Positions 21,479 through 24,241 of a DNA stretch of 47,555 nucleotides are shown here, piece after piece. This DNA comes from a bacterium (GTDB lineage: Bacteria; Actinomycetota; Acidimicrobiia; Acidimicrobiales; Bin134): the NCBI GenBank assembly GCA_026709815.1, contig JAPOSH010000044.1, positions 1 to 47,555 of the forward strand, in the 5' to 3' direction. Position 1 is the stretch's first letter. Each line of letters begins with the position of its first letter. Made by a program: the position numbers and the translations under genes. The notes under the pieces are model-generated. The model was not told where the DNA came from. It ran no database searches and saw only the letters and a list, made by a program, of their open reading frames with translations.

Positions 21479-22648
21479 GTGAGCATCGAGCCGTTCGAGA
21501 TCTGCGTCCCCCGAGCCGACCTAGACGACCTACACCAGCGTTTGTCCATGACCCGTTGGCCCGACACCGTGAGGCCGGGTTGGGCCGACGGCGCTTCGGT
21601 GGCTTACATGCAAGATCTGTGCCGACACTGGGCCGACGGCTACGACTGGCGGGCCCGGGAGACCTACCTCAACGCCTTCCCCCAGTTCACCGCCACTGCG
21701 GCCGGCGAGCGGGTGCACTTCTACCATGTGCGCTCCCCAGCGACCGATGCGCTGCCCATGGTGATGATCCACGGGTACATGGGCTCGGTGGTGGAGTTCC
21801 GCGAGATGATGGGACCGCTGTCCGATCCGGCGGCTCACGGCGGCGATCCGGCTGACGCCTTCCACCTCGTGGTCCCGTCGCTGCCCGGCTACGGATTCTC
21901 CGGCCCGACCGCCAACCCCGGCGTAGACGTGCACCGCTGCGCCGAGGCCATCGCCGGGGTCATGGAGCAGTTGGGCTACGAGCGCTACATCGTGCAGGGG
22001 GGCGACTGGGGGGCGCTGGTCACCCGGCGCATGGCGGAGGCCTTCGGCGACCGGCTCATCGCCGCCCACTTCAACATGCTCTTCGCCCAGCCCACGGCGG
22101 AGGAGGCCGCCGAGCAGGCTGAGATGATGGAAGGGGTGACCGAGGCCGAACAGGCGGCCATGGCCCGCTCGCTGGAGGTGATCGCCGACGGCACCGGCTA
22201 CATGGCCATGCTCTCCACCAAGCCCCAAACCCTGGCCGTGGCCCACAACGACTCCCCCGCCGGTCTAGCGGCGTGGTTCATGGAGAAATACCAGCACTGG
22301 TGCGACCTGGAGAACGGCGATCTCGAGAGCGTGTTCACCAAGGACCAGCTACTCGACAACGTGATGCTGTACTGGATCACCGCCACCGCGGCGTCATCGG
22401 GGCGGCTGTATCTGGAGTCGGCCCGCACCGGCACGTCGGCGCTGGACTCCTGGGCCGGTCGGGTGGAGGTGCCCACCGGCCATGCCGTCTACCCTCGGGA
22501 GCTGCTGCAAACCCCGCGGGTGTGGGCCGAGCGCCGCTACAACATCGTTCACTGGGCCGTGCAGCCCAAAGGCGGCCACTTCGCCCCCTTCGAGCAGCCC
22601 GAGCTGTTCACCGACGACCTGCGAGCCTTCGGGCGCCTGTTCCGCTGA
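21479..22648 (+). CDS. Epoxide hydrolase (EHN N-terminal domain + alpha/beta hydrolase)
   Basis: IEPFEI, YDWRARE, HGYMGS, PSLPGYGFS, QGGDWGA, DSPAGLAAW, GGHFAPFEQP. Confidence 0.92.
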   Translation: MSIEPFEICVPRADLDDLHQRLSMTRWPDTVRPGWADGASVAYMQDLCRHWADGYDWRARETYLNAFPQFTATAAGERVHFYHVRSPATDALPMVMIHGYMGSVVEFREMMGPLSDPAAHGGDPADAFHLVVPSLPGYGFSGPTANPGVDVHRCAEAIAGVMEQLGYERYIVQGGDWGALVTRRMAEAFGDRLIAAHFNMLFAQPTAEEAAEQAEMMEGVTEAEQAAMARSLEVIADGTGYMAMLSTKPQTLAVAHNDSPAGLAAWFMEKYQHWCDLENGDLESVFTKDQLLDNVMLYWITATAASSGRLYLESARTGTSALDSWAGRVEVPTGHAVYPRELLQTPRVWAERRYNIVHWAVQPKGGHFAPFEQPELFTDDLRAFGRLFR

Positions 22649-22651
22649 GGG

Positions 22652-23215
22652 CTACGCGAACCGGGCGGAGCGCATAGCCAAGATGTCGTCCTCGCCGCGG
22701 CCCTCGGTGGCCTCGAGCGCCTCTTCGGGGCCTTTCATGCGCAGCGGGCAGGAAACCGACACGTCCATCACCTGATTGACGCGGCCGAAGGCGATCCAGC
22801 AGCCGATGGACAGGGTCATGTCCATCATCAGCTCGTCGCCGAAGTGCCCGACCATGCGGTCCATGAACGCCTGGTCGATGGCCAGATGGTCGGTGGCGTA
22901 CTTCTCGCAGTACTCCAAGGCATCCCGCTCGGCCTCGCTGTAGCCGTGGTATTGGTCTCGATTGCCGACGTTGAGGTAGTCGTCCTCGCTCAGATCATGT
23001 TGCGCCAACGACGCAACCCGGGTGTCCAGTCAAACCACGCAGTGGTTGATCTGGGCGATCCTCATCCTCAGCAGCTCCCGCAGCCGCACCGAGAGCTTGC
23101 TCTTGTTGTACACCGCCGCGCTGAATGCCGACGCCGGAGCGGTCAGCTCCGGGCACAGCATCCACAGCCGATGCAGCTCCTCGGCGGGGCCATCGGGGAT
23201 CTTGATTCGCGCCAT
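22652..23215 (-). CDS. AhpD/carboxymuconolactone decarboxylase-family protein with in-frame UGA (probable selenocysteine, CVVU)
   Basis: ORFs 23030..23215 and 22652..23008 share a frame and are separated only by TGA at 23030-23032: RELLRMRIAQINHCVV(TGA)LDTRVASL...YSEAERDALEYCEK. Strong RBS GAGGAGG before ATG 23215; 187 aa if read through. Confidence 0.82.
22999..23017 (-). promoter_or_regulatory. Putative bacterial SECIS hairpin
   Basis: GUUGCGUC-GUU-GGCGCAAC: 8-bp stem starting 12 nt 3' of the UGA, loop beginning GU. Confidence 0.7.
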
Positions 23216-23353
23216 GCCTCCTCCTCGGCCGGAATGCCAAGACTGTACAGTCCCAGACGCCTCCCAGCTCGCACAGTCGCTTCACGAGCAGGCGTTCGGG
23301 CCCGTTGCCGCGACTTGCGGCTGTGCTGCTCGCCGCGGCCTCGGCCTTTTCCG

Positions 23354-24241
23354 TCAGCCCAGATCAGCGTGATTCTTCGGACGGGTGGTGGCGATGGTGC
23401 CGTAGAACACACCGACGAGCACGATGACCGCGCCAACGGCGGCGACAGGGCGGGGGAACTCGCTGAAGAACGCCGCGGCCCAAACTGTGCCCGCCACCGT
23501 CTCGATGGGTGAGAACAAGGCCACATCGGCCACCGGGGCGAAGCGAGGCGCGTTGGACAGTGCCAGTCGGCCGAAAGGGTTGAACACCAGCCCCATGGCG
23601 GCGATGGACAGATAGGCCCGGGCGTCCAACGAAAGCGGCGACGCCCAGTACATCAGCGCCGCCACGGTCAGCACTCCGCCGATGGACAACCCCACCAGCC
23701 GGCTCATGTCGGGATACCGGCGCCACATGGTCAGGCTCACCGAGAAGCCCACAATGGCCACCACGCCCAGCAGGTCGCCCGAGAGGGTGGGCTCGCCCAC
23801 CGAGCTGAACACGATGGCCACGATGCCCGCCAGGGTGATGGCGATGGCAATGGCGATGGCGCGGCTTATGCGCTCCTTCAGCCATATCCAGGCGCTCACC
23901 GCGGACAGCAGCGGCACCGCCGACACGATGGCCACCACATTGGCCACCCGGGTCTCGGTGACGGCGATCACGAAGCAGAGCTGGCTGCCTCCGCTGAGCG
24001 CCCCAATGACCAAGTGCTGCCACCGGTGGCTGCGGAACGCCTCCAGCGGCCCGCAGCCGTCCACCCGATGGCTCAGGCCGGTGTAGAGGGGTACCGAGCA
24101 GCACGCGACCCAGAAGGAGACATCCACGGCATCGGCCTCCGAGAGCCGGATCCAAAGCGAATCGGTGGAAACCGCCAGCATCCCCACTCCGGCGAGCAAC
24201 CAGCCCAGCCGCCGTTGATCATTGGCCCGGGCGGCATCCAT
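23354..24241 (-). CDS. DMT/EamA family transporter
   Basis: About 10 TM helices; LKERIS and FFSEFP half-repeat motifs. Confidence 0.85.
   Translation of the reverse strand: MDAARANDQRRLGWLLAGVGMLAVSTDSLWIRLSEADAVDVSFWVACCSVPLYTGLSHRVDGCGPLEAFRSHRWQHLVIGALSGGSQLCFVIAVTETRVANVVAIVSAVPLLSAVSAWIWLKERISRAIAIAIAITLAGIVAIVFSSVGEPTLSGDLLGVVAIVGFSVSLTMWRRYPDMSRLVGLSIGGVLTVAALMYWASPLSLDARAYLSIAAMGLVFNPFGRLALSNAPRFAPVADVALFSPIETVAGTVWAAAFFSEFPRPVAAVGAVIVLVGVFYGTIATTRPKNHADLG

Follow-up and report, generated by a model that had tools for sequence, protein, structure and literature searches.

A probable CMD-superfamily selenoprotein with a CxxU motif and a SECIS-like hairpin in sponge-associated Acidimicrobiia

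Analysis of a 47,555-nt stretch of bacterial DNA (the window, in what follows, is this whole stretch) points with high confidence to one intact selenoprotein gene on the minus strand, in which UGA codon 62 would be recoded as selenocysteine (Sec) by the complex of SelB, GTP and Sec-tRNA(Sec) recruited by a downstream hairpin. The frame runs from an ATG at 23213-23215 to a TAG at 22652-22654, and its sole internal stop is the TGA of codon 62, in the context AQINHCVV-TGA-LDTR. Under translation table 11, the halves of this single frame appear as two ORFs, one of 61 aa (23030..23215) and one of 118 aa (22652..23008). The original prediction had read them as a hidden selenoprotein, and its coordinates, two-fragment frame, TGA site and 187-aa length were every one correct on re-reading, as was its placing of the TGA at the second position of a CxxC-type motif, here C59-x-x-U62. 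An AAGGAG(G) or GAGGAG core is kept ahead of the ATG in all 30 orthologues described below, suggesting that translation starts at the N-terminal piece. The features of the locus are listed in Table 1.

Table 1 Features of the predicted selenoprotein gene, in positions of the window.
Feature	Position	Strand	Remarks
Selenoprotein coding sequence (predicted)	22652..23215	-	187 codons + TAG; predicted CMD/AhpD-fold product with Sec at residue 62; same architecture in 30/30 orthologues
Shine-Dalgarno-like GAGGAGGAGG	23217..23226	-	Ends just ahead of ATG 23213-23215
CMD domain, Pfam PF02627, residues 22-102	22910..23152	-	35.4 bits against a cut-off of 23; one TGA inside the match
Glu47 codon	23075..23077	-	Conserved Glu of the E-x11-C-x2-C/U spacing; RLRELLRMRIA kept in 10/10 full-length homologues
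Cys59 codon (TGC)	23039..23041	-	First position of the CxxU redox motif; invariant among orthologues
UGA codon 62, probably read as Sec	23030..23032	-	Cys opposite in 10/10 full-length homologues; TGA in 30/30 orthologues
Spacer from UGA to SECIS stem, 12 nt, codons L63-R66	23018..23029	-	Arg66 (23018-23020) stands where AhpD has His
Putative SECIS hairpin, 8-bp stem + GUU apical loop (loop 23007-23009)	22999..23017	-	-9.6 kcal/mol; conservation and covariation; within consensus constraints
C-terminal extension, residues 158-187	22655..22744	-	Missing from 160-aa Cys homologues; conserved end ...ILAMRSARFA; dN/dS 0.30

The residue replaced by the TGA is a cysteine in every stop-free relative found. 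A protein database search with the 187-aa query returned 22 matches, comprising 10 full-length proteins (160-167 aa, 36-57% identity) and 12 fragments, and Cys stands opposite U62 in 10/10 of the full-length matches. Stop-free genomic homologues from G044, G047, G052 and G053 carry TGC or TGT at this position (4/4), so that the homologues with Cys at codon 62 expected by the original prediction are present in both collections. In addition, 61 related genomes were searched with stops read through, 37 of them (the host genome included) from the same genus. These 37 genomes yielded 30 full-length orthologues with 78-94% protein identity, all distinct in gene sequence, and each has exactly one in-frame stop, which is TGA at codon 62 in 30/30. 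In genome G015 the gene is divided over two contig ends and has the TGA there too, and in G005 only its first 32 codons are present, at a contig end; no orthologue was detected by this search in the same-genus genomes G004, G011, G012, G013 and G030. TGA also occupies the same CxxU position in four to five further homologues, the distant ones of which (36-39% identity) come from G037, G040, G058 and a paralogue in G002. Among the 30 orthologues, dN/dS is 0.139 for codons 2-61, 0.188 for codons 63-157 and 0.30 for the C-terminal tail, pointing to purifying selection on both flanks of the TGA.

The sequence was also compared over 22600-23300 with contigs of four public sequencing runs; most public runs in which the stretch occurs bear the label sponge metagenome. 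Over 22860-23300 there is full identity to a DNA contig of the same study but another sample, and another study contributes a contig that spans all of 22600-23300 with 9 differences. The TGA is also bridged by contigs of two metatranscriptomic libraries, both of one study, that represent a relative with about 93% identity; this establishes presence in RNA libraries but does not prove transcription. Across the four runs, none of the differences listed falls at 23030-23032, nor between 22986 and 23116. The agreement of contigs from other samples argues against an assembly error, and the question of a sequencing error raised in the original prediction is answered in the same direction by TGA at codon 62 in all 30 species-level orthologues and, among the differences listed, by these contigs.

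It is on these data that a pseudogene, or an ordinary CxxC CMD gene with an assembly or sequencing error at the TGA, has to be judged. A base-calling mistake or a recent nonsense mutation would indeed show up as a lone in-frame stop, and public annotation has the locus as a truncated hypothetical protein, but a TGA at the same codon in 30/30 orthologues at 78-94% protein identity, dN/dS of 0.14 and 0.19 on either side of it, the agreement of independent contigs and the sharing of the TGA by four distant homologues leave this reading a negligible probability, and it is effectively refuted already.

In an unrooted phylogeny, whose deep branches are long and unresolved, the 30 Sec forms of the genus are sister to nine 160-aa Cys forms (support 98/98), and the distant Sec forms fall outside. 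At least two switches between Sec and Cys, in either direction, are required by this tree, in keeping with the dynamic exchange of the two residues that earlier work describes in bacteria. In one congener, G002, the orthologue is accompanied by a 37%-identical paralogue with a CxxU TGA (L049, G002:C8:103307-104380, minus strand); the paralogue has its own hairpin with the 5-nt loop CGGGA.

The hairpin following the UGA has the form GUUGCGUC-GUU-GGCGCAAC (23017..22999). Its stem begins 12 nt past the UGA, so that the loop opens, with a G and then a U, at nucleotide 21 after the UGA; the 8-bp hairpin with a GU-initiated loop, 12-nt spacing and loop 21 nt from the UGA had been claimed in just this geometry, which is correct. 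According to section 5 and the Fig. 2 legend of a 2026 review (PMC13188914), bacterial SECIS (bSECIS) elements have an apical loop of 3-9 nt, an upper stem of 4-16 bp, 16-37 nt between UGA and loop, a G within the first two loop positions that is usually followed by G or U, and a minimum free energy of -7.5 kcal/mol or lower. All these constraints accommodate the hairpin described here (loop 3 nt, stem 8 bp, G first and then U, 20 nt between, -9.6 kcal/mol). The 19-nt hairpin folded alone is more stable than shuffled sequence (z -3.17; 0/200 shuffles as stable), and a 43-nt piece less distinctly so (z -1.96; 8/200 shuffles fold as well). Wider pieces are no stabler than shuffles in this GC-rich DNA (54 nt, z -0.16; 66 nt, z -0.09), and therefore conservation and covariation, rather than folding energy, carry the argument for the hairpin.

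In an alignment of 35 TGA-bearing sequences, 17 of them distinct, pairing is seen in 97.8% of the stem cells; sliding the partner by 1-3 columns lowers this to 22-56%. Three of the eight pairs have changed on both sides, namely 19/37 (G-C, G-U, A-U), 20/36 (U-A, C-G) and 24/32 (G-C, A-U), and the compensatory pairing reaches proteins merely 36-39% identical. The shuffle control for covariation takes the 35 rows as unrelated; most of them are close kin, so that few independent events underlie the covariation. In minimum-energy folds, the hairpin recurs at the same register in 6/6 TGA sequences and in 0/4 Cys sequences. The degenerate codons for A68, S69, L70 and Q72, which lie within the stem, are each represented by a single codon across all 30 species. 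A scan of 22900-23120 against Rfam, with E values up to 10, gave three chance-level matches and no SECIS, a class of bacterial element that is poorly represented there.

Within the genus, V67I and H73Y change together (codons at 23015-23017 and 22997-22999, minus strand). The first positions of these two codons form the outermost pair of the SECIS stem, which passes from G-C to A-U; one genome (L032) shows the G-U intermediate. As judged from the alignment, RNA pairing constrains the protein sequence and drives the coupled V67I/H73Y changes, making this SECIS a clear example of such a constraint.

The host genome, an assembly of 244 contigs that is 88.9% complete, encodes the machinery for Sec insertion that the original prediction had proposed to look for. 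A tRNA-Sec (67.5 bits against a cut-off of 47; anticodon UCA according to ARAGORN), selA (392 bits), selB (258 bits, adjoining selA) and selD (358 bits) were all found above their curated cut-offs. Neither selA nor selB has internal stops, and selD has one in-frame TGA, in the motif HGAGUAGKL, so that it is itself Sec-containing. Matches to selA are present in 36 of the 37 same-genus genomes and in all three genomes outside the genus that bear the TGA form; selA was not found in G020 (93% complete), which carries the TGA gene, and a selA match is absent from two of the four genomes with Cys forms. The TGA at 22646-22648 serves as the ordinary stop of the adjacent convergent gene, which rules out a global reassignment of TGA.

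Conservation of the TGA is by itself silent on the residue inserted, and a read-through that inserts something other than Sec, whether by near-cognate insertion of Trp or Cys or because UGA is reassigned throughout the lineage, has to be considered. We regard it as very improbable, because the genome has the complete Sec pathway, with selD itself a Sec user, the UGA is followed by a covarying hairpin within the bSECIS consensus, the neighbouring gene stops at TGA, selA and selB are free of internal stops, and the site is a redox Cys, the typical position for Sec. Recoding of the UGA as Sec, as inferred in the original prediction, is thus supported by four independent lines that agree, namely Cys/Sec pairing, TGA conservation, the SECIS and the machinery.

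Further candidates for recoding occur in the same genome. In selD, the TGA (L015 1170-1172, minus strand; G000:C235) is followed after 7 nt by the start of an 8-bp hairpin with the loop CCG. Four PF02627 matches were found in the host genome, two of which carry a TGA. The second of these candidates (L056 565-1068, plus strand; 167 aa) has its TGA at 736-738 (G000:C169:10235-10237) within the motif NDCNIUKNLR, which again follows E-x11-C-x2-U-x3-R, and a 7-bp hairpin with the loop AGGU starts 10 nt past the TGA.

The match to PF02627 spans residues 22-102 of the 187-aa read-through product, and the domain therefore crosses the TGA. The active-site motif, E47-x11-C59-x2-U62-x3-R66, keeps the Glu and CxxC spacing of AhpD-type proteins, the catalytic motif of AhpD being E-x11-CxxC-x3-H. 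Arg occupies the +4 position, that of the AhpD His, in 10/10 Cys homologues and in the distant Sec forms; this CxxUxxxR arrangement and a genus-specific C-terminal tail are the traits particular to the subfamily. Scores for the NCBIfam models lie below their cut-offs (NF053654, 39.7 against 310; TIGR01926, 19.1 against 81.8; TIGR00778, 20.6 against 27.8; NF041047, 13.1 against 110), and on these profile comparisons the protein is a member of the CMD superfamily that lies outside all curated NCBIfam selenoprotein equivalogs. Of the label "AhpD/CMD-family" given by the original prediction, membership of the CMD superfamily stands, with PF02627 above its cut-off and the fold in agreement. Assignment to AhpD proper does not, because the His of CxxCxxxH is replaced by Arg and the AhpD core model TIGR00778 stays below its cut-off.

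An AlphaFold2 model of the product has a mean pLDDT of 73, with a core at about residues 40-140 of about 87-98 and both termini below 50. In a Foldseek search of the PDB with this model, the best 10 matches are all CMD/AhpD proteins with target-normalised TM scores of 0.76-0.85, and the predicted structure has the AhpD/CMD helical fold. The C-terminal extension, with pLDDT below 50, has no confident structure. This 30-aa tail of the Sec forms of the genus has an acidic, variable middle and is predicted to be disordered.

Fragments of 117-120 aa with 76-90% identity, covering 63% of the query, make up the 12 closest protein clusters, and the six that were aligned all begin at residue 70. On this evidence, gene callers have truncated one and the same gene, a systematic mis-annotation that agrees with the statement in the original prediction that genes of this kind are routinely split in annotation. 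Public collections present the gene, in 12 clusters of which one has 80 member sequences, only as a "hypothetical protein" whose start is a TTG within the SECIS hairpin. The same ORF could be taken literally, the locus then giving two products, a 61-aa peptide ending at the UGA and a 118-aa piece from the TTG at 23006-23008. That gene callers yield exactly such a 117-120-aa ORF in 12 protein clusters speaks for this, as does the fact that termination at a Sec UGA occurs when selenium is scarce. Nevertheless, the TGA falls within both the Pfam CMD domain (residues 22-102) and the predicted fold, the Cys homologues are single 160-aa chains, the TGA always stands in for a catalytic Cys, and the TTG lies inside the SECIS hairpin, across the loop and 3' arm, with no Shine-Dalgarno-like motif ahead of it; we accordingly give two separate products little credence. 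With a single recoded product as the preferred reading, at least 12 public clusters show the gene without its catalytic centre, and the second CMD selenoprotein and selD of the host genome are probably mis-annotated in like manner.

Downstream of the selenoprotein gene lies an epoxide hydrolase gene with EHN and alpha/beta-hydrolase domains (21479-22648, plus strand). The two genes stand tail to tail with 3 nt between their stops (TGA and TAG), and the neighbour, which is kept in 20 of 30 orthologous loci, is convergent and therefore not in an operon with the selenoprotein gene. Upstream, an EamA transporter gene (23354-24241, minus strand) is kept in 7/30 loci, and an EEP-family protein is also encoded among the neighbours. 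No adjacent ahpC and no operon partner pointing to a substrate were seen among the locus neighbours. A scan of 22500-23500 for promoters and terminators gave no promoter-like site and one chance-level terminator-like site on the opposite strand. The gene neighbourhood was considered as a clue to function; with EamA in 7/30 loci and the epoxide hydrolase convergent, it allows no firm inference.

The organism is known from metagenome-assembled genomes only. Its lineage is Acidimicrobiia (Actinomycetota), the relatives including Candidatus Poriferisocius and other Acidimicrobiales, and the naming of Actinobacteria as the host group in the original prediction was right. Sec use in another Acidimicrobiia order is described in a 2026 preprint (10.64898/2026.04.03.716425), and nothing was found on Sec use in the genus Poriferisocius in the open-access literature. 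The present analysis documents genus-wide Sec use and a small selenoproteome in this sponge-associated lineage.

Based on these results, a mechanism can be proposed. UGA 62 would be recoded as Sec during translation to give one 187-aa CMD/AhpD-like selenoprotein, with the 8-bp, GUU-loop hairpin 12 nt downstream acting as a bacterial SECIS. SelB bound to GTP and Sec-tRNA(Sec) would bind this hairpin and hand Sec to the ribosome, and the charged tRNA would be supplied by the genome-encoded tRNA-Sec, SelA and SelD. In the predicted product, a short helix would begin with the C59-x-x-U62 centre, and the conserved Glu47 precedes Cys59 by twelve residues. U62 holds the position of the second Cys of AhpD, which we take to be the nucleophile in that enzyme; by family resemblance, U62 would be the attacking nucleophile and C59 would resolve the selenenylsulfide. 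By analogy with AhpD-type proteins, the protein would most likely cycle between the selenol/thiol and selenenylsulfide states while reducing an oxidised substrate such as a peroxide or a peroxiredoxin, and a function as a thiol/selenol oxidoreductase is inferred on the same ground. With Arg standing in for the AhpD His, the proton relay of AhpD is not kept here and an AhpD-like peroxidase function is an analogy only.

A different chemistry can also be envisaged for the CxxUxxxR subfamily, which might act not as a peroxide-defence AhpD but, for example, in the reductive dehalogenation of sponge brominated aromatics. The Arg in place of the proton-relay His, the conserved genus tail and the retention of the gene across a sponge-associated genus motivate this idea, and brominated aromatics are abundant in sponges; we hold it to be unlikely. 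If it were true, the enzyme would have a CMD-fold counterpart in the debrominase Bmp8 and a mechanistic one in the Sec-dependent deiodinases, and the convergent epoxide hydrolase kept in 20/30 loci would be consistent with a part in processing xenobiotics or natural products.

Bmp8 (6ohi, 6ohj) demonstrates that the CMD fold is able to perform thiol-based reductive dehalogenation. It shares the CMD fold with the protein predicted here, and its CxxC aligns with the CxxU; the match (Foldseek TM 0.59; E 4.1e-08 with the family profile against the PDB) is much weaker than that of PA0269, and no genes for halogenated substrates were seen among the neighbours of the selenoprotein gene. The best profile and structural matches are PA0269 of Pseudomonas aeruginosa (2o4d, 2ijc, 7xw1; E 1.3e-17) and Atu0492 (2gmy; E 1.4e-13), with TM scores of 0.76-0.85 and a CxxC that aligns with the CxxU; the top Foldseek matches include an entry named "AhpD from P. 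aeruginosa". Both differ from the present protein in having Cys instead of Sec and His instead of Arg four residues past the second Cys (CAYCVNMH and CAFCVDMH), and their identity to it is 21-23%. Mycobacterium tuberculosis AhpD is alike in the CMD fold and in the arrangement of Glu and CxxC, whereas its proton-relay His is missing here, the TIGR00778 score is sub-threshold and ahpC is not adjacent.

Among selenoproteins, the AhpD-like 1, COG2128 or YciW-type proteins (NF053654, TIGR01926) share the CxxU and a CMD-type helical fold with the present protein and give weak profile matches over residues 26-149. The scores for NF053654 ("YciW-related (seleno)protein") and TIGR01926 ("peroxidase-related enzyme") are far below the cut-offs, so that the protein is not a member of these families. 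The existence of AhpD/CMD-like selenoproteins, on which the original prediction relied, has been catalogued since 2005, when the Sargasso Sea study recorded 27 sequences of a CxxU "AhpD-like" family (COG2128) and four of a "CMD domain-containing" family (PF02627) (PMC1088965). The GOS data set added 299 AhpD-like and 70 CMD sequences, with an entry "AhpD-like 2, pfam02627, CxxU" that lists 70 selenoproteins and 207 Cys homologs (PMC2398784), and the table of the 2026 review includes both families, with an entry "CMD-like protein PF02627 CxxU" (PMC13188914). AhpD-like and CMD selenoprotein families are also found in BSepDB. The protein predicted here resembles the CMD or "AhpD-like 2" selenoproteins in the PF02627 domain, the CxxU with Sec in second place, the downstream bacterial SECIS and the marine setting. 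Set beside the published entries by their description, it differs in the motif E-x11-C-x2-U-x3-R, the 30-aa tail and the sponge-associated Acidimicrobiia host. The gene therefore belongs to a selenoprotein family already known and leaves the current understanding of Sec decoding unchanged.
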